DNA from: an uncultured Candidatus Saccharibacteria bacterium | GTDB lineage: Bacteria > Patescibacteriota > Dojkabacteria > SC72 | Direction: 5' to 3' | Length of the DNA: 64,000 nt | Assembly (NCBI GenBank): GCA_964610125.1 | Contig: CAZSUV010000002.1 | Location: 120,940 to 184,939, forward strand | Shown here: one piece after another, positions 2,407 through 17,741 of the stretch | How the letters are laid out: every line of letters starts with the position of its first letter | Numbering within the stretch: position 1 is the first letter of the stretch | Made by a program: the position numbers and the translations under genes | The notes under the pieces: generated by a model | The model's input: the letters and a program-made list of their open reading frames with translations, nothing else | Databases searched by the model: none | Told to the model about the DNA's origin: nothing

Positions 2407-2787
2407 ATGGCTAAAACAATACTAATAGTTGAAGATGATAAGCAATTATTGGACTCTTATAAGGAGCTTGTAGAAACTGCTGGGTATACTTGCTTGACTG
2501 CCAACGATGGATATCATGGCTTAGATGTAATGACACAGCAGATGGGCATTGTAGCGCTTGTATTGCTTGATCTAATGATGCCTGGGGTTGATGGCCTCGA
2601 AGTTTTGAGAGCTGTAAAATCTAATCCAGAGAAATATGGAAATGTTCCCGTTGTAGTATTAACAAATATGACTAGTGATGCTGTTATCAAAGAAGCATTT
2701 GATTTAGGAGCTTCTTCTTACCTAGTTAAGACTGATATAGATTATGAAGGCCTGATAAAAGAATTAAATAAATATCTTGGGGAGTAA
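2407..2787 (+). CDS. stand-alone CheY-like response regulator receiver domain (PilH/PilG-like)
   Basis: 'ILIVEDD' supplies the acidic pair, 'LLDLMMPGVDG' the phospho-acceptor Asp, 'VVVLTNM' the conserved Thr and 'YLVKTD' the conserved Lys. It is 126 aa with no output domain and sits inside the pilus gene cluster. Confidence 0.85.
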   Translation: MAKTILIVEDDKQLLDSYKELVETAGYTCLTANDGYHGLDVMTQQMGIVALVLLDLMMPGVDGLEVLRAVKSNPEKYGNVPVVVLTNMTSDAVIKEAFDLGASSYLVKTDIDYEGLIKELNKYLGE

Positions 2788-2858
2788 TTTTGTTGCCCTA
2801 CTCTTTTTTTGCTATTATATATAAATATTAAAAGTTAAACTTAGATAAACTGCTCAAT

Positions 2859-3890
2859 ATGGCTAAGTTGCCCGACCATGTAGGTATAGATTTTGGTACT
2901 CACTCAGTGAAAGCTGTTGAGTTGAAGAATATTTCCTCGGATACTCCAGAGCTTGTAAATCTTGGATCTCAAATTACTCCGAAAGGTGTTATAAACAGTG
3001 AAGATAAAGCTGATCAAACAAAACTCGCTGATGTACTTAAAAAGCTTTATGACTCATCGAAGATAAAGAATAAATCTGTAGTTATGGCTCTTCCTGAATT
3101 TTCAGTATTTACTAGGTTCTTGGAATTTCCAGGAGTTAAACTCGAAGAGTTAAAAGATGCTGTGTATTTTGAGGCTAAACAGTATATCCCAATGCCACTT
3201 GATGAAGTTCAATTGAGCTATATTACAATAGGATTTAATCAAACCAAAAATGCGCCTCGTGTACTTTTAGTTGCTGCTCCTCGAAAGATTATTGACATAT
3301 ATATTAATGTCGCTATGAATGCAGGTCTGGAACTTGCTGCTATTGAGACAGAATCTGTTGCAATGGGAAGGGCTATGTACCGTGCTACAAAGAAGAAAGA
3401 CCTAGTAATGTTGGATTTTGGGGCAAACAGCACAGATATGAGTATTCTTTCTGAAGGATATTTAGTATTTTCTCAAAGCATTGCAATTGGATCAGATTCT
3501 TTAACACAGTCTATTGTTAATAAATTCAATTTTGAATATTCAAGAGCTGAGGAATTTAAACGAAACTATGGTGTTGTGGAAAACGTTTTAGAAGGAAAAA
3601 TATATAATGTGCTCTCTCCTATCGTTGAATCTATATTGGTTGAAGTTAGAAGAGGAATTGAATTCTACAAAAACAAAACATTAGTTGCAGCACCTATGGA
3701 TTATATTTTAAATGGAGATGGCGCTCTTCTTCCAGGTTTAATAGAATATGTATCTAAGAGTTTAGGTGTGAATGTCTCTATTGCTACACCTTGGAATTCT
3801 ATAAAAATTGATAATAAATTTAAAGACATAATAGCGAAGAGTGGCCCTTCATACTCAGTAGCTATTGGATTAGCATTAAAAGATGAATAA
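2859..3890 (+). CDS. pilM: type IV pilus assembly protein PilM (actin-like ATPase fold)
   Basis: The N-terminus 'VGIDFGTHSVKAVEL' is an actin/FtsA-like phosphate-1 motif. It is 343 aa and is followed by PilN/PilO-like genes. Confidence 0.8.
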   Translation: MAKLPDHVGIDFGTHSVKAVELKNISSDTPELVNLGSQITPKGVINSEDKADQTKLADVLKKLYDSSKIKNKSVVMALPEFSVFTRFLEFPGVKLEELKDAVYFEAKQYIPMPLDEVQLSYITIGFNQTKNAPRVLLVAAPRKIIDIYINVAMNAGLELAAIETESVAMGRAMYRATKKKDLVMLDFGANSTDMSILSEGYLVFSQSIAIGSDSLTQSIVNKFNFEYSRAEEFKRNYGVVENVLEGKIYNVLSPIVESILVEVRRGIEFYKNKTLVAAPMDYILNGDGALLPGLIEYVSKSLGVNVSIATPWNSIKIDNKFKDIIAKSGPSYSVAIGLALKDE

Positions 3891-4587
3891 TAATACCCCT
3901 GATATCAAAAATATATTCACAAAAATAAGAGCACAAAAGCCTGCCATAAAGACTGATAAATCAGTTTCTCCGCTTACTCCTTCTCAAAAAAATGAGATTT
4001 CCAAACCCGGATTTGAAAATATTATGGCAGAAAAAGGTGTCAATCTAATACCAACTCTTTCAAAAGAAGAAGTTGTCGTAGCAGAAAAAAAGAAAAAATT
4101 AAATGTTAGTTCTATTGTTAGCCTTTTGATATTAGTAATTGTTTCTATTCTTATAATAGGATTTAATATTGTTTCTAGGATGTCGCTGAATAATGAAAAG
4201 GGAAAATTAAAAACATACGAAACTCAAGTAAGCGGAATGGCACAAAAGATTATTTCCAGTAATGAAATCACTGAAAGAGTTCAATTGTATAATCGAGTTC
4301 TGGGAGAAACCTATTCTCCTAAAAGTGTTGTTGACTATCTAAATGCCATTGCCTCAAAAAGCGGATCTTCTGTTATTAGCAATTTTGCATTGGGTGAAAA
4401 TCTGCTTTTCACGATTGAAGGAAAGGCCTCAGACATGGAAAATATCTCAAAATTTTGGTATTTGCTAAGCAATGATCCAAAAATGGAGACAGTAACCCTT
4501 CAATCAGTTGGAAATAGTGATAATAACGTAAGATTTGTTTTTAAAGGAAAGTTGATTTTGAAAGAATTCTTAAGTTCAGTTAATTAA
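3883..4587 (+). CDS. PilN-like bitopic membrane protein
   Basis: It has a single transmembrane segment ('IVSLLILVIVSILIIGFNIV') followed by coiled-coil-like sequence. It sits in the PilN position after pilM and overlaps pilM by 8 nt. Confidence 0.5.
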   Translation: MNNNTPDIKNIFTKIRAQKPAIKTDKSVSPLTPSQKNEISKPGFENIMAEKGVNLIPTLSKEEVVVAEKKKKLNVSSIVSLLILVIVSILIIGFNIVSRMSLNNEKGKLKTYETQVSGMAQKIISSNEITERVQLYNRVLGETYSPKSVVDYLNAIASKSGSSVISNFALGENLLFTIEGKASDMENISKFWYLLSNDPKMETVTLQSVGNSDNNVRFVFKGKLILKEFLSSVN

Positions 4588-4590
4588 AAA

Positions 4591-5307
4591 ATGCCAATAG
4601 CTTCAAACTTAGCAAGTGCTACAAAAACTAAAAAAGAGATAGATGCGATAAGTGAGAGAGTAAGAAAGACAAAGCTGAAGGTAACGGATGTCATAATCCC
4701 TATTTTGGTTGTAATTATTCTTGTTATCCTTGGGGTATTCGTATTTGTTCCGATGATAAAAAAGGCAATATCATTCCAAGCTGAGCATGCCTCTGTAGTT
4801 GAGAAAGAGAAGAAGCTAATAGAATTAAAAGAAACTTTAAACACTATGGATGAGGGTATTCTGCAAAGTGACTTAATTAATGCACAGAAGGTAATACCAA
4901 ATACTTTAAAGGTATCAAGTTTTATGTACTATATTGATAATCTAGCTTCTGAAAAGGGGCTAACCTCCTCTGAGATTTCTGCTGGTGATATTAAAATAAA
5001 TACTGAAGGAGAAACTAGTGATGGAAACTATATCTTGGGGGTTAGCGGACCTTTAGCGTATGAAGGAACTTTGACTAACGCTTTAAGTTTTCTTGATAGC
5101 CTTTATTCCATATCTCCTTATATAATAACCATTGAAAATCTTGAGCTAGAGGCATTTAATAATTCATGGAAGATCAGTCTTTCAGTTACAGGGTATTATG
5201 TTCCAGTATCCGCATCAAGCGCAGATGTTTATTCAACATTTACACCGTATAGTAAATACTCAGATATCGTGAAGATATTTGAAACAAAAGCTAGTCAGTT
5301 AGACTAG
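4591..5307 (+). CDS. PilO-like bitopic membrane protein
   Basis: It has a single transmembrane segment ('IIPILVVIILVILGVFVFVPM') followed by a coiled coil ('EKEKKLIELKETLNTMDEG'). It sits in the PilO position. Confidence 0.45.
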   Translation: MPIASNLASATKTKKEIDAISERVRKTKLKVTDVIIPILVVIILVILGVFVFVPMIKKAISFQAEHASVVEKEKKLIELKETLNTMDEGILQSDLINAQKVIPNTLKVSSFMYYIDNLASEKGLTSSEISAGDIKINTEGETSDGNYILGVSGPLAYEGTLTNALSFLDSLYSISPYIITIENLELEAFNNSWKISLSVTGYYVPVSASSADVYSTFTPYSKYSDIVKIFETKASQLD

Positions 5308-7153: not shown

Positions 7154-7333
7154 TTATGATTTTTTAGTTTCTTTCTTTTCCTTGTAAAAACCACATGATG
7201 GACATGCAAAATGTGCTCGTTTTACGTTTCCGCATTTTGGACATTTTGACATACCTGTAACTTTAAGTGCATTGTGTGATCGTCTTTGTCCACGTACGCT
7301 ACTTGAAATTTTTCTTTTTGGAAGTGCTCCCAT
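7154..7333 (-). CDS. rpmF: 50S ribosomal protein L32
   Basis: This gene was found by hand translation and is absent from the ORF track because it is only 59 aa. It reads 'MGALPKRKISSSVRGQRRSHNALKVTGMSKCPKCGNVKRAHFACPSCGFYKEKKETKKS', with the N-terminal 'PKRK' motif and a CxxC...CxxC zinc ribbon typical of L32. Confidence 0.8.
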   Translation of the reverse strand: MGALPKRKISSSVRGQRRSHNALKVTGMSKCPKCGNVKRAHFACPSCGFYKEKKETKKS

Positions 7334-7363: not shown

Positions 7364-7392
7364 ATTATATTCGATATATTGCTCTTTTTCAA
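7364..7392 (-). promoter_or_regulatory. sigma70-type promoter (TTGAAA-N17-TATAAT) upstream of rpmF
   Basis: On the minus strand the sequence reads TTGAAAaagagcaatatatcgaaTATAAT. It lies between the clpC-like stop (7397) and the rpmF start (7333). Confidence 0.4.
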
Positions 7393-7396
7393 CAGC

Positions 7397-10120
7397 TTAT
7401 ATAATCCAGCTCTCTCTTATGTTTATTTCTGCTCCAGATTTTAGATTTCCTTCTATGATTTCTTTAGCTATTTCACCCTCTATTCTATCCTGTATGTATC
7501 TTTTGATAGGTCTTGCACCCATTCCTGGCTCATTTGATTTATTCGCAACTAACATTGGTATCTGGTTATTCCATTTGAGGATCATACCCTTGTCAGCAAG
7601 CCTCTTTGCTAATTCTGCGAGTAGTAATTCTGAAATCTGAGTTAGATTATTAATATCATGTGGTGCAAATACAATTACTTTGTCAAAACGATTGAGCAAT
7701 TCTGGTCTAAGGTATTGTCTTAATTCTAGTAATACTCTGTTTTTTGCTTCATCCCAAAGTGAAGCGTCTTTTTCAAGTGCTTCTAGAAGAATTTGGCTTC
7801 CAATATTGCTTGTACAGATTATTACTGTATTTGTGAAGTCTACGGTTTCTCCGGCACTACTTGTAAGTCTGCCTTCATCAAATATTTGTAAGAAGAGATT
7901 TAATATATCTGGGTGGGCTTTTTCGATTTCATCAAAAAGTACAACTGTATATGGATTGGATTTAACTCTGTCTACCAGTGTAATTTGTGATTGCCCCATT
8001 ATATTGGTTTGGGTAGACGAACCTAAGAATTTGTCTATACTCGATACATCCTGATATTCAGACATATCAATTCTAATTATATCTTGTTTGTTACCAAAGA
8101 ATTCTTCACCTACAACCTTAGCAAGATATGTTTTACCAACACCTGTAGGCCCTATGAACAAGAATGTCCCAATTGGTTTATCTGCACTCCTAATATCTGT
8201 CCTTGCTCTTCTCAGGGCTTCTGTGATTGCAATGATGGCCTCGTCTTGTCCTACAATTCTAGACTTAATGTTCTCTTCTAATTTCCTCAATCGATTACTT
8301 TCTTCTTGATCTATTTCTGTAATATTTATGTTTTTTTGTATAGATATAGCCTTTGAAACATGCTCAGATGTAATCTTGGGGATATTGTTTGATTGTGCCC
8401 ATGAACATGTAGCCTCAATGGTTTGTACTGCACTACTTGGTAATTTCCTGTCTCTAATATATCTCTGTGCTAATTCAACGGAAGCTACTAAAGCTGGGAA
8501 GGTGATATAGCAGGAGAAGTTGGATTCAAGTTCCGCTACTTTGGTTTCAAGAATTTTTAATGTATCAGTTGTGCTTACTTCTTTTACTTCAATATTACTA
8601 AAGCTTTGTCTAAGAGATTCATTACTGTAAAAATACTTTTTGTAATCAGCATAGTTTATCGTCCCTATTATCGGGAACTTACTATTCATTATGTATGGAA
8701 GCATTACTCCCGCTATGGATTGACCTGATTCTTCGGCCTTTGCGGGAATTAATTCCTGCATTTCATCTATGTAAAGGATTGTGTTCCCAGCATTACCCAA
8801 CTCTTCCATGGCTTTGATTATCAGTTGCTCAATGTTTTTCTCTCCTGAAGCTTGCGCAATTAATCCATTTACGTCAAATTGAACGACGCGTTTGTCCTTT
8901 AATTGAATTGGTACATTTCCAGTGTTGATTCTTTGGGCAACTCCAAGTATTAGGCTTGATTTACCTACTCCAGCCTCACCAATTAGGAGTGCATTTTTGT
9001 TTGAAATCTTTCCTAAAACTGATACCAAATTCTCAATTTCTTCCTCATGTCCGATTCCAAATGTATCCTGGTTTTCAGCAACGACACGGGTTAAATCTTT
9101 GCTAAAGTGACTAAGTATGAAGGTATATCCGAAGACCCATTGCTTTGCAATTCCTCCTCTTCTGTAATATGGAATTTTAATATCCAAGAAATTTGCTCTG
9201 TTCTTCTTGTTTATGACCTTATTGTTGTACAAACAAATCTCTCTAAAGATATCGATTGTAATATTCTTGGTTTGAAGAAATTTTTGTAATTGAGGAAATA
9301 TCCTAGTTATGGCAAGAAATATGTGTTGAGGTTGAACCTCTTTACTCTCAGTAAGTAAGGCTTCTTCAACCGCATATGTGAGCAAACTTCTGTATGCCGT
9401 AATGTGATATTGTGGTAGTGATTCTGCGTTTACTTTGAAATCTTTTTCTAATTCCTCAATACCCATTTCAATTCCGGATCTTCTAATGAGTTGTTGTACT
9501 TCAAAATTATCAGTAAGCAAATGCTTGTAAAGCTCAAATATGGAGAAGTGGTTATCCTTAGTGTAGGTGCAGAGCATCTCAAGAGTTTCTTGATTAGTGA
9601 AATGTACTATCTCCAGGTGTGCATACCTACCGAATTTAAATCCTGTCGCCCTTATTTCATCTAACTCTTTTGGAGATATTTTCTTAGCAATTGGGAGTTG
9701 TACAGGATGGCTTTTTTCTTCGTAGAAATCATGCCAAAGAATTATGACACCAAGTATGGATAACCCAAAGAGTACTCCACTCCACTTTGAATCTATGAAC
9801 TGAACGATGAATGAACTATCATCTAAAAGGTTTGCATATCTAAAAATGAAACCAACAGCTACAAAGATACCTGGGACAATGATAATGTTGGCAAGGATAC
9901 GAACAACGTCGTGGACTTTTTTGTATCTTAAGAAGTTCTTAATTACTGAAGCTATCTGTTGGGTTGAGATTGAAAAGAAATGGTCCCTAGTGACCAAGAA
10001 TGTAGCCTCATTTTCATTTTCAAGTATTGGGTATTTCTTTTCAATAATGCCAACGCGACCAGTATCTTTTTTATGATATCCACATATTGTTTTCTGTTGC
10101 ATTTCGAAATCTAGTGCCAT
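7397..10120 (-). CDS. ClpA/ClpC-family two-ring AAA+ unfoldase with an N-terminal two-TM membrane anchor
   Basis: D1 has Walker A 'GEAGVGKSSL' and Walker B 'ILYIDEMQEL'. D2 has 'GPTGVGKTYLAK' and 'VVLFDEIEKAHPD'. The inter-domain linker is short and ClpA-like ('RIVGQDEAI'). Residues around 240-330 resemble a Clp_N repeat pair ('LTYAVEEALLTESKEVQPQHIFLAI'). Residues around 85-150 contain two hydrophobic helices ('IIVPGIFVAVGFIF', 'WSGVLFGLSILGVIILW'). Confidence 0.8.
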   Translation of the reverse strand: MALDFEMQQKTICGYHKKDTGRVGIIEKKYPILENENEATFLVTRDHFFSISTQQIASVIKNFLRYKKVHDVVRILANIIIVPGIFVAVGFIFRYANLLDDSSFIVQFIDSKWSGVLFGLSILGVIILWHDFYEEKSHPVQLPIAKKISPKELDEIRATGFKFGRYAHLEIVHFTNQETLEMLCTYTKDNHFSIFELYKHLLTDNFEVQQLIRRSGIEMGIEELEKDFKVNAESLPQYHITAYRSLLTYAVEEALLTESKEVQPQHIFLAITRIFPQLQKFLQTKNITIDIFREICLYNNKVINKKNRANFLDIKIPYYRRGGIAKQWVFGYTFILSHFSKDLTRVVAENQDTFGIGHEEEIENLVSVLGKISNKNALLIGEAGVGKSSLILGVAQRINTGNVPIQLKDKRVVQFDVNGLIAQASGEKNIEQLIIKAMEELGNAGNTILYIDEMQELIPAKAEESGQSIAGVMLPYIMNSKFPIIGTINYADYKKYFYSNESLRQSFSNIEVKEVSTTDTLKILETKVAELESNFSCYITFPALVASVELAQRYIRDRKLPSSAVQTIEATCSWAQSNNIPKITSEHVSKAISIQKNINITEIDQEESNRLRKLEENIKSRIVGQDEAIIAITEALRRARTDIRSADKPIGTFLFIGPTGVGKTYLAKVVGEEFFGNKQDIIRIDMSEYQDVSSIDKFLGSSTQTNIMGQSQITLVDRVKSNPYTVVLFDEIEKAHPDILNLFLQIFDEGRLTSSAGETVDFTNTVIICTSNIGSQILLEALEKDASLWDEAKNRVLLELRQYLRPELLNRFDKVIVFAPHDINNLTQISELLLAELAKRLADKGMILKWNNQIPMLVANKSNEPGMGARPIKRYIQDRIEGEIAKEIIEGNLKSGAEINIRESWII

Positions 10121-10122
10121 GG

Positions 10123-10524
10123 TTACTTAATCAGTGAAGTTATGATGAATGTTAATGTTGCGATTGGTAATATAATCCAGAAGAGTATGAAGAGGAGGTA
10201 AAGGAAGAAGATTAGGAGGAATATTGTAACGGCAATTGGCAGGTAGAGGATTCGCATGGCTATTCCAAAGAGGTATCCCATTGCGGAGTAATCTCGATGC
10301 CATGGTGTAAAGAATGTTTTGAAAAGCAAACTTAATGAAAGTTGATCATCTACAACTGTGGCTAGTCGATTCAGTACTCTTAAATGCCATATTGGCATCT
10401 TTATGTACCACCATCTAAGGAAGTCCTGAAAGGAGTACAAAACAATAGCCGCATATGAGTCGACTTTGGTGCCTGTGAGTAATTGTTGTCCCGAGTTATC
10501 AGAGACTGTGTTTTTTACTTCCAT
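10123..10524 (-). CDS. small polytopic membrane protein, translationally coupled to the clpC-like gene
   Basis: It is 133 aa, and its C-terminal half is strongly hydrophobic ('LPIAVTIFLLIFFLYLLFILFWIILPIATLTFIITSLI'). Its stop lies 3 nt before the clpC-like start. No motif is recognised. Confidence 0.45.
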   Translation of the reverse strand: MEVKNTVSDNSGQQLLTGTKVDSYAAIVLYSFQDFLRWWYIKMPIWHLRVLNRLATVVDDQLSLSLLFKTFFTPWHRDYSAMGYLFGIAMRILYLPIAVTIFLLIFFLYLLFILFWIILPIATLTFIITSLIK

Positions 10525-10590
10525 TGTTTGGGCAGATTTTATCTGTTAGTTTAGTTTATTGTAAAACCCTCTCTTGTGCAAGTCTAAGGG

Positions 10591-10612
10591 AGATCAGATC
10601 TAGATCTGATCT
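10591..10612. promoter_or_regulatory. perfect 22-bp palindrome AGATCAGATCTAGATCTGATCT in the divergent promoter region
   Basis: The sequence is exactly self-complementary. It contains four GATC sites and lies between the divergent membrane-protein/clpC-like operon and dus. Confidence 0.4.
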
Positions 10613-10628
10613 ATGGTAAAATATCTCT

Positions 10629-11570
10629 ATGAATATATTCCAAACTATTAAACAAGAAAAAGGATTTTTGGCTATGCTTTCCCCTATGGAGGATGTGACC
10701 GATACTGTTTTTAGGCAAGTGCTATGTAAGATTGGAAAACCTGATGTCTTTTTCACTGAATTTATGAATGTCGAGGGGTATTGTTCTGTTGGTAAGGATA
10801 AGGTAGATCATAGAATACAGTTTAGTGAAATTGAACGTCCGATTGTTATACAGCTTTGGGGAAATGTCCCTGAGGATTTTGCTAAAACGGTTAGAGAGAT
10901 TAAAGAGTTAAAACCTGATGGGTTTGATATTAACATGGGATGTGCTGTCCGAAATGTGATAAATACTGGCGGTGGTTCTGCATTGATTAAGGAGCCAGAA
11001 TTAGCCAAGGAGATAATTCTGGCAGTTAAACAAGAAGCGGGTGATATTCCTGTGAGTGTCAAGACTAGGTTGGGATATTCTATTGTTGATACAGAGAATT
11101 GGATTGGGCTTTTGCTAAATCAAGGCTTGGATATGCTTACTGTGCATGGAAGGATTGCTAAAGATAGTTATGCTATTCCTTCTAGATGGGATGAAATACA
11201 GAAGGTTGTAAAGATGCGAGATGAGCTTTCCCCGACTACATTGATTATTTGGAATGGTGATATTACTTCTTCTAGACAGGGGGAGGAATTTGTAAAGACA
11301 TATGGTACTGATGGGTATATGGTTGGGAGAGGGATTTTGAATAACCCATGGTTATTTAGTGGAAGAGAGGATATTCCCGAGGAAGAGCGATTTAATGTAT
11401 TGTTAGAACATGCAAAATTGTTTAATGGGGTTTGGGGTGAGGAGAAGAATTTTAGTGTTATTAAGAAGTATATAAAGACATATATTTCTGATTTTGAGGG
11501 GGCTAATGAATTAAGACAGAGGTTGATGATGGTGAATAGCTATGAGGATTTAAAGGAGATGATTAAGTAG
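10629..11570 (+). CDS. dus: tRNA-dihydrouridine synthase
   Basis: 'LSPMEDVTDTVFRQ' is the Dus N-terminal FMN-binding motif, and the 'CAVRNVINTGGGSALIKEPELAKEII' region matches Dus. The likely true start is the Met at 10674 ('MLSPMEDVTD'). Confidence 0.85.
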   Translation: MNIFQTIKQEKGFLAMLSPMEDVTDTVFRQVLCKIGKPDVFFTEFMNVEGYCSVGKDKVDHRIQFSEIERPIVIQLWGNVPEDFAKTVREIKELKPDGFDINMGCAVRNVINTGGGSALIKEPELAKEIILAVKQEAGDIPVSVKTRLGYSIVDTENWIGLLLNQGLDMLTVHGRIAKDSYAIPSRWDEIQKVVKMRDELSPTTLIIWNGDITSSRQGEEFVKTYGTDGYMVGRGILNNPWLFSGREDIPEEERFNVLLEHAKLFNGVWGEEKNFSVIKKYIKTYISDFEGANELRQRLMMVNSYEDLKEMIK

Positions 11571-12498
11571 GAAAATGCTCTTTTGCAAGATTCTCAAGCA
11601 TTCCAATAGAGGTGTTGTTATTTGAAGGCACTATCTCTTTGCATTGTAGATATTGGCTTATCTGTTCTATGATTAAAATCGCGTTATCTGCAGACCACAT
11701 ATAATATGGTTCTTCTGGGTATAATGGCATTCGATCCTCATAGGATAGTTTTTTAATTTTTTCATATACTTCCTTTAATGATTTAATATTCGTTTTGTAT
11801 TGATGGGAACCTGTAAAAATATATTTCTCCAATTTAATGCTCATAGCTTTCATAAAATCAATGATATTGGTTGTGCCATACACAATGTATTCTGGCTTAT
11901 GCATACATTGTTTTAAAGGAATAAACTCTTGCTTTAAGAACTGCTTTGCATTCCCATATTCCTTTTGCGTTGGAAAATGTGTAGCGTAAAATTCTTCTTG
12001 CATAAAATAGGTTCCTGCTTTGAATGGATATATTTCAAAAATATCATTGTCTTTCCCAACAATAACTTGTACACTCCCTCCTCCTACATCCACAACGGCT
12101 ATTGTTTGATTAGGAAAATCTCTCGAGACACTTTTGAATAGTGTGGATGCTTCTTCTTGAGCAGATATGATTTCAATATCAAACCCAGTTTCTCCTTTAA
12201 TTCTACTTAATACTTGGTTAACATTTTTAGCTTTTCTTAAAGCTTCTGTGGCAATTACTTTGTAATGTTTTACTTTGTTTTTTTGAAGTACTTCTCGATA
12301 TACTAGTAAGGTGTGTATTGCTTTTTGAATTGATTCTTCAACTATCATTCCATTGGTTTTAGGTAAGTCTCTCCCCATAACCGTTAACTCCTTCGCTTTG
12401 TAGAATACTTTTCTCCTTTGGTCTTTATCTATTTCATCAATTTCAAACTTTATCTTTAGTGTTCCAATATCTATGAGTGCAAATTTTTCAATTTTCAT
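11563..12498 (-). CDS. ppx: Ppx/GppA-family phosphatase (exopolyphosphatase / pppGpp phosphohydrolase)
   Basis: 'ALIDIGTLKIKFEI' and 'VVDVGGGSVQVIVG' are actin-like ASKHA phosphate motifs typical of Ppx/GppA. Confidence 0.75.
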   Translation of the reverse strand: MKIEKFALIDIGTLKIKFEIDEIDKDQRRKVFYKAKELTVMGRDLPKTNGMIVEESIQKAIHTLLVYREVLQKNKVKHYKVIATEALRKAKNVNQVLSRIKGETGFDIEIISAQEEASTLFKSVSRDFPNQTIAVVDVGGGSVQVIVGKDNDIFEIYPFKAGTYFMQEEFYATHFPTQKEYGNAKQFLKQEFIPLKQCMHKPEYIVYGTTNIIDFMKAMSIKLEKYIFTGSHQYKTNIKSLKEVYEKIKKLSYEDRMPLYPEEPYYMWSADNAILIIEQISQYLQCKEIVPSNNNTSIGMLENLAKEHFPT

Positions 12499-12543
12499 AA
12501 GTTTTTATGTATATATTACTTCGAAGATTATATGTATAATTAA

Positions 12544-12562
12544 TTGTGTAGTCATTACACAA
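12544..12562. promoter_or_regulatory. inverted repeat TTGTGTAgtcatTACACAA upstream of the RHH-fusion gene
   Basis: A 7-bp perfect inverted repeat with a 5-nt spacer lies 20 nt upstream of the 12582 start. It is a candidate operator for the RHH domain encoded downstream. Confidence 0.3.
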
Positions 12563-12581
12563 CTATCAAAATATATACACA

Positions 12582-13193
12582 ATGAACATGAAAGTATGGT
12601 TTGGTTGTACCTCTCTTGATTGGGAGAAACATAGAGAAAGATATATTGAAATACGGAAAGAATTAATAGATCAAGGGAGTATTCTACTCTTTGATTGGAT
12701 TCCAGAAACAGATAAATACATTAGAGAACACGGGCACCCTGAAAGAGAACGAGATATAAAAGGTATATTTCAAAAAATAGTAGAAGCTATTAATAAATGT
12801 GATGTATCTATTACAGAATACACTGTCCCAAATTTCAGTTCCTCACATCAGATTAGTTTGTCATTAGCTAGACAAAAACCAACCTTAGTACTAAAGCAGA
12901 AGAATCCGAATCATGGATGGAATAATTCATATATCGATGCTGTAAGCTCTCCCCTGCTCGTTGTAAAAGAATATGAGGAAGATGGATACAAAGATATTAT
13001 TAAGGAATTCTTAGGTCAATTTAAAAATGGCTATGGTCAGGAAAGATACAATTTTGTATTAGACAGAAGAGAGAAATACTACTTAGATTGGGCTTCTGAA
13101 AAATACTCAAAGAGTAGATCTGAGATATTGAGAGATTTAATTGAAGATAAAATGGAAAGTGATACTAGTTACAAAGAATTAATTAAGGGATAA
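12582..13193 (+). CDS. fusion protein with an N-terminal nucleoside 2-deoxyribosyltransferase-like (flavodoxin-fold) domain and a C-terminal ribbon-helix-helix DNA-binding domain
   Basis: The C-terminus 'RYNFVLDRREKYYLDWASEKYSKSRSEILRDLIED' matches the RHH/CopG pattern (beta-strand, 'LD', 'SRSE.IR..I'). The N-terminus has 'KVWFGCTS' and 'DVSITEYTVPNFSSSHQISLSLARQKPTLVL', which resemble the NDT/LOG-like 'KiYlAGP' and 'D..a.ldg...d.GTafElGyA.algKPVi.l' motifs. The N-terminal call is tentative. Confidence 0.5.
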   Translation: MNMKVWFGCTSLDWEKHRERYIEIRKELIDQGSILLFDWIPETDKYIREHGHPERERDIKGIFQKIVEAINKCDVSITEYTVPNFSSSHQISLSLARQKPTLVLKQKNPNHGWNNSYIDAVSSPLLVVKEYEEDGYKDIIKEFLGQFKNGYGQERYNFVLDRREKYYLDWASEKYSKSRSEILRDLIEDKMESDTSYKELIKG

Positions 13194-13201
13194 TATATGA
13201 T

Positions 13202-13627
13202 ATGGATCATATAGCGATAATGAATAAGGCTTGGAAACTAATCCCGAAGATATTAAATGGTACAAAAACCATAGAAAGTAGATGGTATGTTAACAAGATC
13301 AAGCCTTGGAATAGTCTCAAAGTTGGTGAGCGTGTTTTTTTCAAAAACTCCGGAGAACCAATAACCGTTTCAGCTGTGGTATCAAAGGTTTTACAGTTTG
13401 AGAATCTTGATGAAGCTAAATTCAGAAACATAATGAATGAGTATGGAGATGGAATACAAGTTACTGAAAGAGAATATGATGAATACTATCAATCTAAGAA
13501 TTACTGTATCCTGGTATTCTTAAGTGATGTTAAACAACTAGAAACTCCATTTAATATATCTAAAAAAGGCTTTGGTAGTGCATGTGCTTGGATGTGCGTA
13601 GATAATATTGAAGAGATTAAGCTATGA
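13202..13627 (+). CDS. ASCH-domain (PUA-like) protein
   Basis: 'LIPKILNGTKTIESRW' matches the ASCH N-terminal beta-barrel motif ('ailsGkKTvE.R'). The protein is 141 aa. Confidence 0.65.
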   Translation: MDHIAIMNKAWKLIPKILNGTKTIESRWYVNKIKPWNSLKVGERVFFKNSGEPITVSAVVSKVLQFENLDEAKFRNIMNEYGDGIQVTEREYDEYYQSKNYCILVFLSDVKQLETPFNISKKGFGSACAWMCVDNIEEIKL

Positions 13628-14181
13628 GTGAATATCTAAAACAAACCTTCACAGGTCATATAGATTTCAAAGACAATGAATATGAAGAATGTATCTTTGA
13701 AAAATGTAATATCAATGAAGAAAATATAAAAAATTGTGTATTTACTAAATGTACATTTAATAACTGTGAGATTAGTAATGTAAAAATTGTTAATTCAAAA
13801 ATAACAGATAGTACATTTAATAAATGTAAATTAATTGGTATTGAATGGAGTAAATTTGAATGTAGATTCGGATTTGCTAATACTTTCATACAATGTTACA
13901 TGCCCTACTCTGTCTTTGTAGAGATAGATTTAACAAAGAGTAATTTCCTTGAATGTAATCTAACGGAATCATATTTTGAATATGTTAAGGCTAAGGGAGT
14001 TTCATTTAGTAAGTCAGAATTAAAAGGTGTTCAATTTCTAAAGTGTAATCTTTCGGAATGTGATTTTATTGAAGCTAAGAATTATTTCTTTGATATACGA
14101 GAGAATAACTGTAAGAATGCAAAGTTTTCTAAAGAAGAGGTTGTATATCTATTGAAAACGTTTGGGATAAAGATAGAATAG
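13624..14181 (+). CDS. pentapeptide-repeat protein (Qnr/MfpA/McbG-like right-handed quadrilateral beta-helix)
   Basis: A continuous run of 5-residue repeats has C/F/L at the i and i-2 positions ('CIFEKCNINEENIKNCVFTKCTFNNCEISNVKI...CNLTESYFEYVKAKGVSFSKSELKGVQFLKCNLSECDF'). The start overlaps the ASCH gene (ATGA). Confidence 0.8.
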   Translation: MSEYLKQTFTGHIDFKDNEYEECIFEKCNINEENIKNCVFTKCTFNNCEISNVKIVNSKITDSTFNKCKLIGIEWSKFECRFGFANTFIQCYMPYSVFVEIDLTKSNFLECNLTESYFEYVKAKGVSFSKSELKGVQFLKCNLSECDFIEAKNYFFDIRENNCKNAKFSKEEVVYLLKTFGIKIE

Positions 14182-14183
14182 TC

Positions 14184-14591
14184 TTAAATCAATGATTTAA
14201 GCTTCTCAAGCGTAATTTTGAATACAATATTCGGTTTCCCCCCTGCTCCTAATAATATCTTACTAGAATCGAAGCCTTCCATAATATGTGTTTCTAATTT
14301 TGTTAAATGACCAAAAGGAGGAACCCCACCAATACTATATCCGGTTACTTCCTTAACCTCATCTGCATTCGCCATTCTTCCTCCAATACTTTCTAAGTCT
14401 AACCTTCTATCTCCAGGTACTAGATACAAAACAAAGTTATCTCCTACTTTAGTTAGTAATGATTTAACAATATTGGATACAGGAACATTATGAGTATTGG
14501 CAGCATCTTGTGCAGTACGAGTGGATTCCTCAGTTTCTAACAACTCTATATCTAGATTATTTGTTTTAATATATTCTTCAAAAAGATTCAT
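14184..14591 (-). CDS. YbaK/ProX-family aminoacyl-tRNA trans-editing (deacylase) domain protein
   Basis: 'GYSIGGVPPFGH' and 'ILLGAGG' are YbaK-like motifs. The protein is 135 aa, so it is a short form. Confidence 0.6.
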   Translation of the reverse strand: MNLFEEYIKTNNLDIELLETEESTRTAQDAANTHNVPVSNIVKSLLTKVGDNFVLYLVPGDRRLDLESIGGRMANADEVKEVTGYSIGGVPPFGHLTKLETHIMEGFDSSKILLGAGGKPNIVFKITLEKLKSLI

Positions 14592-14612
14592 AATATTGGA
14601 TAATACTATGCT

Positions 14613-15308
14613 CTAGAACTCTTGTACAGTATATGTCTCTTCATTTATTTCTAAATGCCCTCTTTTTTTAAAAGCACGAAATATGGCATCTTCGTCGTAG
14701 TATTTTTTTTCAAGTTTCATAAATTCATCCTCTGTAACCCAATAATTCTTCCCGTTTGGAGTGTTTTCAATTTCCCCTTTTGGATTTTGTGCAGAGATAA
14801 TGAAGAAGATCTTATCTTCCATGAGTTTTCCATCCTCTTCCATTACTATATGATCATGGAATATCGTTTTTATGGTGAAGCTGCTACAATCCAATCCTGT
14901 CTCTTCGATCAACTCTCTTCTTGCTGTTTCTCTAATCTTTTCTCCAAACCTAATTTTGCCTGTTATGAAGCCTCGATATCCATAGTATGGTTCTTTGGTT
15001 CGTTCTTGTATGAGGATATGTTTCTTTCCCTTTATATATTTATATGGAATTACCATTACTGCGACCTTAGGTTGTTTTTCGATTTGTATTTGGTCTGTAT
15101 CCATTCTATTGGCAAATTCTTTTCCATTACTGGTAAGTGTATATCCTCTGTCTGATTTTTTAACCAATCCTAATTCTACTAAGGTATTAATATGGTAAGA
15201 GAAATGGTCATTGGTTAACCCTTTTATATTCAATTCGCTAAATCTAGAATTAGGTTTAAAGAGTAATTCTTTAAGGATTAGCATTTGTATTTGATGAAGG
15301 TCCTCCAT
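14613..15308 (-). CDS. winged-HTH (MarR-like) - NUDIX hydrolase fusion protein
   Basis: The N-terminus 'LILKELLFKPNSRFSELNIKGLTNDHFSYHINTLVELGLVKKSDRGYTLTSNGKEF' is a winged helix-turn-helix. The C-terminus carries a NUDIX box 'GKIRFGEKIRETARRELIEETGL' (GX5EX7REUXEEXGU). Confidence 0.75.
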   Translation of the reverse strand: MEDLHQIQMLILKELLFKPNSRFSELNIKGLTNDHFSYHINTLVELGLVKKSDRGYTLTSNGKEFANRMDTDQIQIEKQPKVAVMVIPYKYIKGKKHILIQERTKEPYYGYRGFITGKIRFGEKIRETARRELIEETGLDCSSFTIKTIFHDHIVMEEDGKLMEDKIFFIISAQNPKGEIENTPNGKNYWVTEDEFMKLEKKYYDEDAIFRAFKKRGHLEINEETYTVQEF

Positions 15309-15419
15309 ATTTAATTATGACTAAGTTATATATCAGTATAATATATGGAATATTGTTGAGATTCTAGTGAAATACACTTCACTGGTATGCCGAAATTGAG
15401 GGTTTTAATATATGGAAAC

Positions 15420-15520: not shown

Positions 15521-16099
15521 CTATCGTTTATTCTTGCTTTTATCAATCTTAGTGGCAGATTTTAGGTTTCCAGAGGCTAATAGCTCTCCCATCGTTTTTC
15601 TCCCATGGTTCCAATATTTTTGTATTTGGCAAAGTATAGGATCATTGCAGGGTTTTGTTAAATCCATAGGAACTACCTGTACTGAAAATAAATCACTCGC
15701 TACTTCTAATGGGATAATTATAATTGCCGATTTCCTGCCTTCCATGAAAAATACTTTAATGGGTTTCGTATCGGGAAATATCTCTTCAAAAACAGCTTGG
15801 TATACCGTATCGACCAATAATGGATCTGCGATAGTTGCATCCGTTAAGCGTTCTATTTGTATAAGCGACTTGGAATCTCCGAGAGCTTCTGATCCAGCTA
15901 TTTCATATAAATAGTTTTTAAGATAATCAATAGGTTTATTTACCCAAATAGAACCTTCTGAATTTGCGGTTGGTAAGCACTCCTCGTCATCCTTATACTC
16001 GGGATATGTGAGAACATAACCCATCCTAGCCCGAAGTGTTTCTAATTGTTCTTGTGGGTTGAATTCATTGGCATTTGGAAACCTTTTCTCTGGACTCAT
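15521..16099 (-). CDS. hypothetical protein occupying the position normally held by clpX downstream of clpP
   Basis: It is 192 aa and its start abuts the clpP stop (16100/16099). No motif is recognised. Confidence 0.5.
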   Translation of the reverse strand: MSPEKRFPNANEFNPQEQLETLRARMGYVLTYPEYKDDEECLPTANSEGSIWVNKPIDYLKNYLYEIAGSEALGDSKSLIQIERLTDATIADPLLVDTVYQAVFEEIFPDTKPIKVFFMEGRKSAIIIIPLEVASDLFSVQVVPMDLTKPCNDPILCQIQKYWNHGRKTMGELLASGNLKSATKIDKSKNKR

Positions 16100-16681
16100 T
16101 TATCTCTTACTAATAACTTTATCTATCAATCCATACTCCTTAGCCTCTTTAGCCGTAAAATACTTATCCCTATCCGCATCCTTTTCAATATCCTTAATAT
16201 TTTTTCCAGTTTTTTCTGCTAAGAATTCATACAACACTGCCCTATTCTTTAGAATCTCTTCAGCCTCAATGGCAATATCACTAGCCTGACCCTCTACACC
16301 ACCCAAAGGTTGATGAATATGAATCTTACTATTTGGTAGTGCAAACCTCTGACCCTTTTTACCATTAGCCAAAAGAATACTACCCATCGAAGCGGCCATA
16401 CCTACTGCAATGGTTGAAATGTCGCACTTGATATAATTCATGGTATCTAAAATAGCCATTCCTGCAGTAATCTGTCCCCCAGGAGTATTAATGAACATCT
16501 GGATAGGTTCGTCGGGATTCTCTTTCTCAAGAAAAAGTAATTGAGCAACAACAGTATTTGCCATCTCCGTATCAATAGCACCAGTGACAAATATAATTCT
16601 ATCCTTGAGAAGTCTAGAGTATATATCGTATGCTCTCTCACCTTCCCTATCCTTTTCTATGACAGTTGGTATCAAATACAT
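16100..16681 (-). CDS. clpP: ATP-dependent Clp protease proteolytic subunit
   Basis: The active-site Ser is in 'GMAASMGS', the His is in 'HIHQPLGG', and '[15 protein letters not shown]' is also present. The protein is 193 aa. Confidence 0.9.
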
Positions 16682-16703: not shown

Positions 16704-17741
16704 TTAATCTTTATGCATCTCTCCCAAAACTTCTTTGATGAATTCTTCAAAAGCTCTCTGTTTCAAATCAACATTCTTAACATATACCTGCCAATTCTCA
16801 TCATCATATACACTCATATCTGTACCCTTAGGAGCATTCTTCTTTAATTCTTCAATCCTAGTTGCTAGTTCAGCCTCAGTCATATCAATATTATGCTCTT
16901 TCATATACATCTTTAAGAATGTATCTGTCTGTAACGCTTCCTTAGAGTCCTTTTCCCAAAGCTCTCGCATCTTTTCAATGGTTAAATTCTGAGACTTTAT
17001 AAAGTCCTCAACCTTCACACCTTTCTGTTGCATATCATATCTAAATGATCTTTCTCTCTCATGAGCTTCATACATAATTGCAGGTTTAGGAATCTCAATC
17101 TCACAAAGCTTGATAGCTTCATCTAATGCTTTCTCTTGTCTTTGGTGTAAGAGCATATGTGCTTTTTGAGCTTTCATAGCTTCCTCTATCTCTTTTTTCA
17201 ACTCTTTTAGATCTTTTACTTCTGGAAGTTCTATCATCTTTGCAACTTCTACTGCCCATGCATCATTAACTTCTTTCTCTTTAGTTTTGTAATTCTTCTT
17301 AATATCTTCAATAGCCTCTTCAATCTCTTCTTTTGAGATGGTAGCTTCTTCTTTCTCAACCTTAACCCTTTTCAAATTTGCTAATTTGAATTCAGGCATA
17401 ACTGTAACTGTGATTGTTAGTTCCACATCCTTGTCTACTTCAAGCTTAGGAATCTCTTTGTACTCAGGAGGAGCGATAGGATCTAAACTTTCTTTTTGGA
17501 TTGCTGTTGAAATATACAAAGGTGCAATCTTTTCTAAAGTCTCTAATCTCACTGATTGATCAAGTTGAGTTTCGACTAACTTAGCAGGAACCTTTCCTTT
17601 TCTAAAACCCTTGATATCTGTTTCCTTAGCTTTTGCCTTCATCAAGGTCTCGTAGCTTTGATTAAAGCTATCCTTAGGTATGGTTATGGTAAATTCAATG
17701 GTCTCTTTACTAACATCTTTTCTCTGGTAAAAATCGTTCAT
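16704..17741 (-). CDS. tig: trigger factor (short form, apparently lacking the PPIase domain)
   Basis: The 'GFRKGKVP' ribosome-binding signature is in the N domain, and the gene is in tig-clpP order. It is 345 aa against about 430 typically. No FKBP-like segment is recognisable between the N and C domains. Confidence 0.75.
   Translation of the reverse strand: MNDFYQRKDVSKETIEFTITIPKDSFNQSYETLMKAKAKETDIKGFRKGKVPAKLVETQLDQSVRLETLEKIAPLYISTAIQKESLDPIAPPEYKEIPKLEVDKDVELTITVTVMPEFKLANLKRVKVEKEEATISKEEIEEAIEDIKKNYKTKEKEVNDAWAVEVAKMIELPEVKDLKELKKEIEEAMKAQKAHMLLHQRQEKALDEAIKLCEIEIPKPAIMYEAHERERSFRYDMQQKGVKVEDFIKSQNLTIEKMRELWEKDSKEALQTDTFLKMYMKEHNIDMTEAELATRIEELKKNAPKGTDMSVYDDENWQVYVKNVDLKQRAFEEFIKEVLGEMHKD

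Follow-up and report, generated by a model that had tools for sequence, protein, structure and literature searches.

Clp/Hsp100 proteins, which rank among the best-understood protein unfoldases, are defined by aromatic pore loops, an M-domain (ClpB and ClpC types) or a ClpP-docking loop, and a soluble hexamer. In a 64,000-nt stretch of a Dojkabacteria genome (hereafter the window), we found a Clp/Hsp100 gene whose product is predicted to sit in the membrane and departs from these parts. Thus, the question is what such an ATPase does and with which partner. Here, we propose, with a probability of about one half, that it belongs to a lineage-specific, ClpP-independent, membrane-tethered Hsp100 variant, which has a small membrane partner and acts as a low-grip or non-processive remodeller. 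The features of the locus are listed in Table 1.

Table 1. Positions in the window of the two genes, their parts and the nearby clpP gene
Feature	Residues	Position	Strand	Basis
Membrane-anchored (predicted) class-I Clp/Hsp100 ATPase gene	907 aa	7397..10120 (stop codon included)	(-)	ORF, Pfam and PDB matches, AlphaFold2
Orphan small membrane protein gene	133 aa	10123..10524	(-)	ORF, hydropathy
Two overlapping candidate sigma-70-like promoter matches, 5′ of the small gene		10536..10586	(-)	consensus match
N-terminal cytoplasmic beta domain (predicted), four strands	10-52	9965..10093	(-)	AlphaFold2 models, invariant columns
Hydrophobic helix 1 (predicted TM1)	72-95	9836..9907	(-)	Kyte-Doolittle, modelled helix 53-95
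Hydrophobic helix 2 (predicted TM2)	112-132	9725..9787	(-)	Kyte-Doolittle, modelled helix 112-137
Clp_N-fold double-repeat N-domain	150-310	9191..9673	(-)	structure search, profile search
Family-specific N-domain-D1 linker	317-345	9086..9172	(-)	invariant columns
D1 AAA+ module	346-600	8321..9085	(-)	motif location, alignments
D1 pore-1 loop, IAQASGEKNIE		8828-8860
D1 arginine-finger site, SLRQSFS		8597-8617
D2 AAA+ module and ClpB_D2-small domain	601-907	7400..8320	(-)	Pfam, alignments
D2 pore-1 loop, LGSSTQTNIMGQSQI		7982-8026
D2 segment at the ClpA/ClpC IGL/VGF docking-loop site, TSNIGSQILLEALEKDASLWDEAKNRVLLELRQYLRP, no tripeptide		7703..7813	(-)	alignment, motif scan
clpP		16100..16681

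A conserved gene pair in Dojkabacteria

All 62 loci with upstream DNA (Dojkabacteria and related CPR genomes) had the small gene immediately 5′ of the Clp gene and on its strand. The intergenic gap ranged from -10 to +14 nt, with a 1-nt overlap in 17 of these loci. Thus, the two genes form a unit, as the preliminary description had proposed, and the ATPase is translationally coupled to the small gene. The junction in the window reads TAA-CC-ATG, which corrects the gap from the 3 nt given earlier to 2 nt. The two promoter matches (TTTACA-18-TAAAAT, 10/12 positions; TAGACT-17-TACAAT, 9/12) may mark where the two-gene transcript begins; such consensus matches are no more frequent in this region than in shuffled sequence.

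The small protein has a conserved N-terminal part rich in Trp, His and Arg (QDFLRWWYIKMPxWHL...PWHRD) and a hydrophobic tail of ~50 aa, which is long enough for two TM helices according to hydropathy. We collected 117 homologues of 91-174 aa; nearly all measured 124-174 aa, and four shorter ones look truncated. All of them are unnamed or 'hypothetical' and carry no Pfam domain, and the family profile found zero relatives in PDB and Pfam.

The ATPase family was found in 63 GTDB species, nearly all labelled Dojkabacteria/WS6, Patescibacteria or generic 'uncultured'. In an exhaustive representative search, the N-terminal module occurred in 31 of 1.84 billion 50%-identity clusters; this superseded a word-indexed search, in which the first 335 aa brought up only 13 fragments. 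The two-gene membrane module is conserved across Candidatus Dojkabacteria (candidate division WS6, Patescibacteria/CPR). The 63 species, together with full-length homologues (901-907 aa) that number more than 119, rule out an assembly or fusion artefact. For the comparisons below, motif states were read from 119 close relatives and 13 distant full-length relatives, and hydropathy from 55 relatives. In addition, metagenome scans with P0253 and with P0253 plus P0255 for the context of the distant, partly degenerate relatives gave zero matches. Our literature searches found no description of membrane-anchored bacterial Hsp100 or Clp proteins in Dojkabacteria and no experimental data on any member of the ATPase family.

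The neighbours of the locus are housekeeping genes, with dus upstream and rpmF, nusB, rnc, rpsP and a KH-domain gene downstream, and the context is neither a mobile nor a defence island. Meanwhile, a Dodola-type defence system, in which DolB is a ClpB-like ATPase, was considered and rejected. The DolB match was partial, scoring 117 bits over aa 565-775, which is generic AAA sequence, a DolA partner was not found, the small protein had zero matches in PADLOC, and the housekeeping synteny is conserved.

Predicted membrane anchor and N-terminal domains

The ATPase includes only two hydrophobic segments, in which Kyte-Doolittle hydropathy (averaged over 19 aa) peaks at 2.61 and 1.70. Both were kept in the 55 relatives, where the peaks had medians of 2.46 and 1.85, and both formed long helices in the AlphaFold2 models. 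Furthermore, Lys and Arg were commoner before the first and after the second segment than in the intervening loop, a positive-inside bias. These results agree with the two N-terminal hydrophobic helices noted earlier, and from them the ATPase is predicted to be anchored by an N-in/C-in TM hairpin. The second helix is only moderately hydrophobic; it ends in a conserved LWHD motif, and its W129 is invariant, distant relatives included. In the beta domain ahead of the hairpin, G14 and H16 are invariant.

The Clp_N-like repeat pair of the preliminary description was recovered by both structure search and profile search. Pfam Clp_N stayed below threshold on this N-domain, and no significant match resulted when the family N-domain was compared by hhalign with single N-domain sequences from E. 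coli ClpA and ClpB. The linker that follows (PYYRxGGIAxxWxYGYTFxLxxFS) has eight invariant residues (Y318, G322, G323, W328, G331, T333, L336 and F339). It is highly conserved, yet it was modelled by AlphaFold2 with low confidence (pLDDT <50 at aa 323-330).

In the proposed architecture, the beta domain and the hairpin would stand ahead of the Clp_N-fold domain, D1 and D2. Because the predicted anchor precedes the N-domain, D1 would turn its substrate-entry face toward the membrane, a geometry that one would expect of an extractase. A hexamer would then hold its N-domain/D1 face against the cytoplasmic side of the membrane and its free D2 face into the cytosol. In FtsH and Msp1/ATAD1, an N-terminal anchor likewise holds the AAA+ substrate-entry face at the cytoplasmic face of the membrane. 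However, FtsH and Msp1 are both single-ring proteins that lack a Clp_N domain; aromatic pore loops are present in both, and FtsH also carries a fused zinc protease.

Two AAA+ rings and their pore loops

Pfam searches of the ATPase returned AAA (two stretches), AAA_2 (6.9e-50), AAA_lid_9 and ClpB_D2-small (1.5e-17), and PDB chains of ClpB, ClpC and ClpA matched it at E 1e-88 to 1e-112. Judged from its sequence, with Walker A and B in both AAA+ modules and a D2-small domain, the protein belongs to the class-I Clp/Hsp100 ATPases. Its scores fell below the curated equivalog cut-offs of ClpB (TIGR03346, 460.9 bits vs 1232) and ClpA (TIGR02639, 411.5 bits vs 993) and below the cut-off of ClpV/TssH (TIGR03345, 374.5 bits vs 885); there was also no type VI secretion context.

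The domain order is that of ClpA, and TIGR02639 aligned in one stretch (aa 210-901). The Walker A lysines are 276 aa apart, compared with 281 in ClpA and 399 in ClpB; the ~120 aa of the E. coli ClpB M-domain are absent, and D1 carries no insertion. Thus, the short ClpA-type linker without a long M-domain that was described before is confirmed. The long coiled-coil M-domain of ClpB is the DnaK-coupling site, and the half M-domain of ClpC-type Hsp100 proteins is the binding site of MecA or McsB. Since the M-domain is missing, the ATPase would not be a DnaK-coupled disaggregase of the ClpB type.

In the D1 ring, Walker A (GEAGVGKSS) and Walker B (ILYIDEM) are present. At the arginine-finger site, the ALxRRFQ of ClpA/ClpB is replaced, and the change of the arginine pair from RR to QS is nearly invariant among the relatives. 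R504, one position before the lost pair, is invariant in the close relatives and might serve as a substitute arginine finger. With both Walker motifs intact, D1 would bind nucleotide but, lacking the canonical trans-arginine pair, would act mainly as an assembly or regulatory ring. A ClpA-like division of labour, in which D1 serves assembly and D2 is the chief motor, is plausible for this ATPase. The D2 ring has conserved Walker A (GPTGVGKTY), Walker B (VVLFDEIE), sensor-1 (TSN), arginine finger (NRFD) and sensor-2 (GARP) motifs, and would be the motor. The two rings are the most conserved parts of the ATPase (74% identity to the query among relatives for D1 and 72% for D2); being equally conserved, both are under selection. 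The earlier view of two complete AAA+ rings thus holds for Walker A and B but not for the pore-loop tyrosines of both rings or the D1 arginine pair.

The pore-1 loops carry neither the KYRG of D1 nor the GYVG of D2. In D1, a variable SGEK-type sequence replaces KYRG, and the loop has no aromatic residue. In D2, NIMG replaces GYVG with Ile at the Tyr position; the loop was modelled as disordered (pLDDT <50 at aa 702-712). Among the 119 close relatives and the distant ones, the Tyr position is occupied by K, N, G or R in D1 and by I, L, V or a gap in D2, and the aromatic was missing from both rings in 119/119 close and 13/13 distant full-length relatives. The D1 loop is unconserved, and the D2 loop is variable and even deleted in ~7 of the 13 distant ones. 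In Clp/Hsp100 proteins, the pore-1 aromatic is required for substrate binding and translocation, and a Tyr-to-Ala change impairs both (PMC5415569). All of this argues against a high-grip processive unfoldase.

The same loops bear on a somewhat unlikely alternative, namely that the hexamer is a true threading extractase or unfoldase, which pulls membrane or membrane-proximal proteins through its channel by aliphatic D2 loops and releases them to the cytosol without ClpP. The entry face toward the membrane, the intact D2 motor and the absent ClpP loop suit this idea. In addition, the D2 loop of the crown group ends in hydrophobic-hydrophobic-Gly (IMG, LLG, ILG, VFG; [ILV][LFMY]-G), which aligns with the YVG of GYVG, and its middle position is Phe or Tyr in about one-third of the relatives, so that real, if weaker, threading is conceivable. 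However, the pore-1 data described above, from the missing aromatics to the unconserved D1 loop and the deletions in D2, speak against it. The proposal of an unfoldase, disaggregase or extractase that stands alone at the membrane therefore stood in part. Its anchor, missing ClpP loop, two-gene unit and entry face at the membrane fit our results, but the label presumes canonical threading, for which the pore-1 aromatics, the D1 arginine pair and the M-domain are missing.

The opposite possibility is a nucleotide-dependent switch or scaffold, like Torsins or SMAX1, in which ATP binding controls assembly with membrane partners and nothing is translocated. It is quite improbable. The aromatics are lost from both rings, and Walker A, Walker B or sensor-2 are degenerate in some distant relatives that keep the N-terminal membrane module (P0253, P0255, P0261, P0273 and P0276), which favours it. 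However, all D2 catalytic motifs and both D1 Walker motifs are invariant in the Dojkabacteria clade that includes the gene studied here, and D1 and D2 are the best-conserved parts; this argues for real ATP turnover.

Torsins are derived from Clp/Hsp100 proteins, are membrane-associated, have no aromatic pore loops and depend on TM cofactors (LAP1/LULL1) (PMC5425593), and a weak Pfam Torsin match was seen in D2 of some ATPase relatives. However, Torsins are single-ring, ER-lumenal, eukaryotic proteins without their own arginine finger, whereas our ATPase has two rings and an arginine finger in D2, and its 133-aa partner has no AAA-like fold. Thus, the likeness to Torsins is an analogy and not a homology of the systems. 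The plant proteins SMAX1/D53 differ further: they are eukaryotic nuclear corepressors that lack a membrane anchor, keep an M-like region and carry an EAR motif, and the ATPase motifs are intact in our protein.

Each bacterial Clp type resembles the ATPase in part. ClpB/Hsp104, which is a ClpP-independent disaggregase, shares the Clp_N-fold N-domain, the two AAA+ rings, the ClpB_D2-small domain and the absence of an IGF tripeptide, and the D2 of our protein is closest to that of T. thermophilus ClpB (265 bits). However, the ATPase lacks the M-domain coiled coil, the pore-loop tyrosines and the D1 arginine pair of ClpB, and has the beta domain and the predicted TM hairpin. Unlike ClpA, which has the same short D1-D2 linker and no M-domain, it lacks the IGL docking loop, the pore-loop tyrosines and an adjoining clpS gene, and has a predicted membrane anchor. 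The Firmicute-type ClpC/ClpE/ClpL proteins gave the best full-length structure and sequence matches after ClpB (28-35% identity for B. subtilis and S. aureus ClpC), with ClpC chains aligning in two separate stretches. In contrast to them, our protein has no half M-domain, VGF loop or pore-loop tyrosines, and has a predicted membrane anchor.

ClpP docking and the proposed working of the module

As the preliminary description had noted, the D2 segment holds no IGF, IGL or VGF tripeptide. A scan of D1 and D2 for [ILVM]G[FLIM] gave no occurrence, and alignments showed no ClpP tripeptide in the 119 relatives or in the distant ones. Its alignment with T. thermophilus ClpB needed just one gap, of one residue, across the D2 segment. 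It was also said to be short like that of ClpB, and its 32 aa are indeed close to the 30 of ClpB, but ClpA has 30 as well; thus, length does not discriminate and only the loss of the tripeptide does. The IGF motif is essential for ClpP docking, and plastid ClpB3, which lacks it, is unable to dock (PMC7966870). The evidence is consistent with an ATPase that cannot dock ClpP. With no IGF-type loop, the ATPase would not feed ClpP.

Nevertheless, an intact clpP gene with the catalytic triad S/H/D lies ~6 kb from the ATPase gene, and its product is 55.6% identical to E. coli ClpP, with mostly conservative docking-pocket residues. Of the 33 loci with enough flank, 17 had clpP on the same strand and 2-10 kb upstream, and a conserved orphan ORF of ~145-190 aa followed it in 14 of those 17. 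No clpX followed clpP in any locus examined, and tblastn searches for E. coli ClpX and Lon gave no match in the window or in 1.0 Mb of Dojkabacteria flanks, which cover a small part of any one ~0.7-Mb genome. In addition, no clpX was seen in the ~10 kb past the right end of the window; beyond the left end, a 2.4-kb contig was all that was recovered. These observations would fit an ATPase that still partners ClpP as an FtsH-like membrane-bound protease, docking by a non-canonical element or an adaptor such as the orphan ORF. We regard this as quite doubtful. Besides the missing tripeptide and the nearly gapless ClpB alignment, a divergently transcribed dus and other genes lie between clpP and the ATPase gene, so the two are not one operon, and the linkage may be inherited housekeeping synteny. 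Moreover, clpX may sit elsewhere in these genomes; it is present in other Patescibacteria (TM7x, PMC10768705).

We therefore return to the proposed ClpP-independent, membrane-tethered Hsp100 variant, which is presumably ATP-driven because D2 keeps every ATPase motif. With neither a docking loop nor substrate-gripping tyrosines, it probably works unlike the well-studied Clp relatives. Most likely, ATP would be used to loosen, to pull short segments of, or to remodel a specific membrane-associated client or complex, and the small protein would be a member of the client complex or a recruiter of the client. A more speculative and unlikely form is that Dojkabacteria made a double-ring Hsp100 Torsin-like: a non-threading, membrane-anchored machine that works only with its dedicated small membrane cofactor to remodel a membrane complex, and that has become a pure scaffold where the Walker motifs decayed. 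The same low estimate covers its variant, in which the ATPase and the orphan ORF after clpP would provide a new IGF-independent route to ClpP in clpX-less genomes.

In summary, this ATPase family retains the chassis of two rings, with a D2 motor that appears active, but has dropped all three defining parts of Clp/Hsp100 proteins; it has gained a predicted membrane hairpin and, as an obligatory partner, a small membrane protein. Its conservation in at least 63 species of a single CPR lineage, whose genomes are tiny, makes the family likely to be important to these species. The family also raises the testable question of what activates ClpP in Dojkabacteria. If polypeptides are still moved, it would show how far the pore-loop requirement can relax. 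Otherwise, bacteria too would offer a case of an Hsp100 turned into a non-threading membrane remodeller, a conversion that, to our knowledge, has been described so far only in eukaryotic relatives (Torsins and SMAX1).

The Clp gene pair and its surroundings

The gene of the 907-aa Clp/Hsp100-type ATPase directly follows that of a 133-aa membrane protein. The junction reads TAA-CC-ATG and the gap is thus 2 nt, so that the preliminary description was right about the adjacency but not about a distance of 3 nt. The window has a G+C content of about 35% and an ordinary bacterial housekeeping gene content. For instance, rpmF is followed by nusB, rnc, rpsP and a KhpA-type KH-domain gene downstream of the pair, a divergently transcribed dus gene lies upstream, and mutS, pheT, thrS, recG, penicillin-binding protein genes and a pilM-type pilus cluster are found elsewhere.

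Coordinates of features in the window
Feature	Position	Strand	Remark
Type IV pilus-like cluster	310-5307	+	with PilM and pilin-like genes
PilM	2859..3890	+	within the cluster
ORF past PilM	3883..4587	+	no Pfam match
ORF past PilM	4591..5307	+	no Pfam match; hydrophobic stretch
rpmF	7154..7333		downstream of the Clp pair
Sigma-70 promoter match	7364-7392	-	just past the Clp stop, before rpmF
Clp gene (907 aa)	7397..10120	-	ORF call
N-domain-D1 linker (aa 317-345)	9086-9172	-	within the Clp gene
Small partner gene (133 aa)	10123..10524	-	ORF call; directly upstream of the Clp gene
tig-clpP-orphan gene run	15521-17741	-
Orphan ORF (192 aa)	15521..16099	-	begins at the clpP stop
clpP	16100..16681	-	intact
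tig	16704..17741	-
Gene of 1378-aa protein	38795-42931	-	DUF2341 and four Rha78A-like Ig domains

Promoter-like matches were present upstream of the small partner gene. In addition, the near-consensus sigma-70 match before rpmF (TTGAAA-17-TATAAT, 11 of 12 positions) suggests that rpmF-nusB-rnc is transcribed from a promoter of its own and the Clp pair is a separate two-gene unit. The sole terminator-like match on the Clp strand of the region scanned was weak and lay inside the Clp coding region. Furthermore, the small gene was immediately upstream and on the same strand in all 62 loci having upstream DNA (the four loci without a match to it are truncated contigs and stand outside this count), with gaps from -10 to +14 nt and a 1-nt overlap in 17 loci. 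From this conserved adjacency, co-transcription and translational coupling of the two genes appear well supported. In one Dojkabacteria metagenome-assembled genome (JAXGRK010000001.1, locus L070, 10001-12710), the Clp gene is broken up into three or more ORFs and the small gene is intact; the broken gene could be either a pseudogene or the product of assembly frameshifts.

The small partner has 117 relatives, almost all of 124-174 aa, and four shorter ones look truncated. All of them are unnamed or 'hypothetical' and lack a Pfam domain. The family profile gave no PDB match at E <=10 and nothing meaningful in Pfam. The invariant residues (F35, W38, W39, Y40, M43, W46, R53, D60, P74, W75, H76 and R77) cluster in a Trp/His/Arg-rich stretch, which is followed by a hydrophobic tail of about 50 aa.

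Two other parts of the window were also observed. The 1378-aa protein, encoded where the G+C content rises for the only time in the window (0.41 vs about 0.35), is probably a large surface protein. Meanwhile, the pilin-like genes of the pilus cluster have faint to weak N_methyl matches in the matching contig L072, and in further Dojkabacteria loci this cluster likewise lies next to the rpsP/KH genes.

Family assignment and architecture

Pfam identified AAA_2 (6.9e-50), ClpB_D2-small, AAA_lid_9 and two AAA stretches in the 907-aa protein. All NCBIfam equivalogs were matched far below their cut-offs: ClpB with 461 bits (cut-off 1232), ClpA with 411 (993), ClpV with 374 (885), and ClpK and ClpG with 391 and 378 (1900). 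Thus, by profile matching, the protein is a member of the Clp/Hsp100 superfamily outside every named subfamily. Among relatives with a solved structure, Thermus thermophilus ClpB and Bacillus subtilis ClpC matched best (E about 1e-111) and ClpA next (1e-88).

An AlphaFold2 model of the full-length protein, built from 55 family sequences (mean pLDDT 78), contains a four-stranded beta domain (aa 12-50), a long helix (aa 53-95), a second long helix (aa 112-137), a helical domain (aa 150-310) and, beyond it, the two AAA+ rings, D1 and D2. The chains that Foldseek matched to this model, with 28-35% identity, come from ClpC, ClpB and ClpA. Conservation is highest in D1 and D2 (on average 74% and 72% identical to the query), vs 48-57% for the N-terminal parts.

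Only two hydrophobic windows were found in the 907 residues, with peaks at aa 75 (Kyte-Doolittle 2.61) and aa 114 (1.70). Both are kept across 55 relatives (median best windows 2.46 and 1.85) and coincide with modelled helices, which bears out the two N-terminal hydrophobic helices of the preliminary description. Mean K+R counts are 4.5 ahead of helix 1, 3.6 past helix 2 and 1.8 in the loop of about 18 aa between them. This fits a predicted N-in/C-in hairpin, which would keep the ATPase in the cytoplasm. A separate model of aa 1-340 reached pLDDT 84 and pTM 0.79; the transmembrane topology itself is a prediction.

Pfam Clp_N did not match the 907-aa protein and reached only E 0.012-0.19 in three homologues, and hhalign against single reference Clp_N sequences was not significant. 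A nine-sequence family profile aligned with the Clp_N domain of mycobacterial ClpC2 at E=0.0027 (aa 241-294), so the sequences point only weakly to a Clp_N domain. A structure search gave 11.6-11.7 for Plasmodium HSP101, 10.7 for ClpC2, 10.1 for ClpB (1khy), 9.4 for ClpA (1ksf) and 8.7 for ClpV, so the Clp_N-like repeat pair noted earlier was correct. The linker between this domain and D1 carries a family-specific and almost invariant aromatic/glycine motif, PYYRxGGIAxxWxYGYTFxLxxFS; its pLDDT is <50, and it sits at the expected substrate entry to D1.

An identical protein occurs on a 215-kb NCBI contig. In addition, there were more than 119 full-length relatives (901-907 aa, 58-91% identity), and those with a name bear the label Candidatus Dojkabacteria. 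An exhaustive HMMER search with aa 1-335 against 1.84 billion cluster representatives found 31 clusters only; 13 of these are full-length (792-939 aa), and their N-terminal modules are 24-46% identical. When each GTDB species was represented by one genome, the Clp gene turned up in 63 species. Their record titles are nearly all Dojkabacteria, WS6, Patescibacteria or the generic 'uncultured bacterium' and 'uncultured Candidatus Saccharibacteria', with one Candidatus Microgenomates. The Saccharibacteria title, which many of the records carry, and the single Microgenomates one (loci L010-L063) are probably generic or wrong, and thus names alone cannot show the pair outside Dojkabacteria.

ClpP docking, pore loops and ATPase motifs

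The spacing between the Walker A lysines is 276 aa, vs 281 in Escherichia coli ClpA and 399 in E. coli ClpB (both from NC_000913), in agreement with the reported ClpA-type linker and lack of a long M-domain. Without an M-domain, the protein would not be a DnaK-coupled disaggregase. The segment past the D2 sensor-1 is TSNIGSQILLEALEKDASLWDEAKNRVLLELRQYLRP, with a single one-residue gap relative to T. thermophilus ClpB. A motif scan of the whole protein found no [ILVM]-G-[FLIM] tripeptide in D1 or D2; three occurrences all lie before aa 222 and are unconserved. Alignments showed that the docking tripeptide is also absent from the 119 relatives and from the distant ones, so its reported absence holds throughout. 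The segment was also called short like that of ClpB. Its 32 aa do match the 30 of ClpB, but ClpA also has 30, and thus the length does not discriminate and the information lies in the absent tripeptide alone. Docking to the ClpP core is described as requiring the IGF motif, and plastid ClpB3, without this motif, is unable to dock (PMC7966870). Since the IGF loops are missing, the Clp protein would not activate ClpP.

Non-canonical partnership with ClpP is the least probable alternative, and we consider it improbable. The clpP gene of the window is 55.6% identical to E. coli ClpP (tblastn) and has the catalytic Ser, His and Asp. The residues that we take to line its IGF-binding pocket are mostly conservatively replaced. 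Of 33 loci with at least 8 kb of flank, 17 have clpP 2-10 kb upstream of the Clp gene and in the same orientation, and this persistent linkage spans the whole family diversity (43-98% N-terminal identity; loci L005-L070). However, the two genes are set apart by the divergent dus and other genes (10120-16681), and the divergent dus places them outside one operon.

The position past clpP is often occupied by clpX. Here it holds the orphan ORF, which had no Pfam or PADLOC match and no IGF-like motif. Of 17 Dojkabacteria loci, 14 have an ORF of this type (about 145-190 aa) directly past clpP; it evolves fast around a shared core, YF[IL]E[GS]..A....P[IL], and could be a ClpP-associated factor. Searches for clpX and lon were negative for the window, for 1.0 Mb of Dojkabacteria flanks and for about 10 kb past the right end of the window (at the left end, a 2.4-kb contig only); they cover part of each genome, and the negative applies to those stretches. 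ClpX is reported from TM7x, another Patescibacterium (PMC10768705).

When 119 family members were aligned to ClpA and ClpB of E. coli, further losses emerged, which the preliminary description had missed. The D1 pore-1 loop is AQASGEK, vs AGTKYRG in ClpA and AGAKYRG in ClpB; it is poorly conserved, with K, N, G or R at the Tyr position. The D2 loop is GSSTQTNIMG, vs GAPPGYVG; in the family it is variable and S/T/G/E-rich with the ending [ILV][LFMY]-G, where an aliphatic residue replaces the Tyr, and its pLDDT is <50. The pore loop-1 aromatic is a family hallmark, and Clp/Hsp100 proteins mutated there bind and translocate substrates less well (PMC5415569). Lacking aromatic pore loops, the protein would be a low-grip translocase at best. 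A genuine threading extractase, as first suggested, is therefore unlikely, although it is the strongest of the alternatives.

In D1, the arginine-finger site is SLRQSF[TS], vs ALERRFQ/ALARRFQ in ClpA/ClpB: RR is replaced by QS almost invariantly, and R504, one position earlier, is invariant. Walker A and B of both rings, the D1 sensor-1 Asn, the D2 sensor-1 TSN, and the arginine finger NRFD and sensor-2 GARP of D2 are conserved. Thus, D2 is apparently a competent ATPase, and D1, without canonical trans-arginines, would bind nucleotide.

The 13 distant full-length relatives retain the hydrophobic helices, and none has the pore-loop Tyr or the IGF tripeptide. Metagenome scans for the genomic context of two of them, P0253 and P0255, found nothing. 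The D2 loop is deleted in about seven of the 13. Five relatives from the cluster search (P0253, P0255, P0261, P0273 and P0276) have a degenerate Walker A, Walker B or sensor-2 next to a retained N-terminal membrane module and a deleted D2 pore loop, and they look like pseudo-ATPases. A Torsin/SMAX1-like switch or scaffold with no motor function is about as improbable as the ClpP partnership, if marginally less so. Torsins (PMC5425593) resemble the Clp protein in Clp ancestry and in the loss of pore-loop aromatics, and also in membrane association and a membrane-bound partner, both of which are predicted for the Clp protein; the D2 motifs listed for the Dojkabacteria family are those of an intact ATPase.

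Proposed role of the module

The two genes form a conserved module, predicted to be membrane-anchored, whose large subunit is a two-ring Hsp100 chassis without an M-domain, a ClpP loop or aromatic pore loops. It is like ClpA in linker length, like ClpB in D2 and in the absent ClpP loop, and like FtsH and Msp1 in its predicted membrane anchor. However, each named Clp subfamily has one or more defining features that the protein lacks, and its scores stay below every curated cut-off. We found no description in the literature of a transmembrane-anchored bacterial Hsp100, nor of Clp proteins in Dojkabacteria. Nevertheless, the protein is not categorically new, because its chassis and chemistry are those of Hsp100. 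We favour, at a probability of about one half, a membrane-held, D2-driven and ClpP-independent Hsp100. The hexamer would sit with its N-domain and D1 turned towards the inner membrane surface, and D2 would drive the machine. Rather than even a low-grip translocase, it is more likely to be a remodeller devoted to a client associated with the membrane, and the small protein would be a partner in this.
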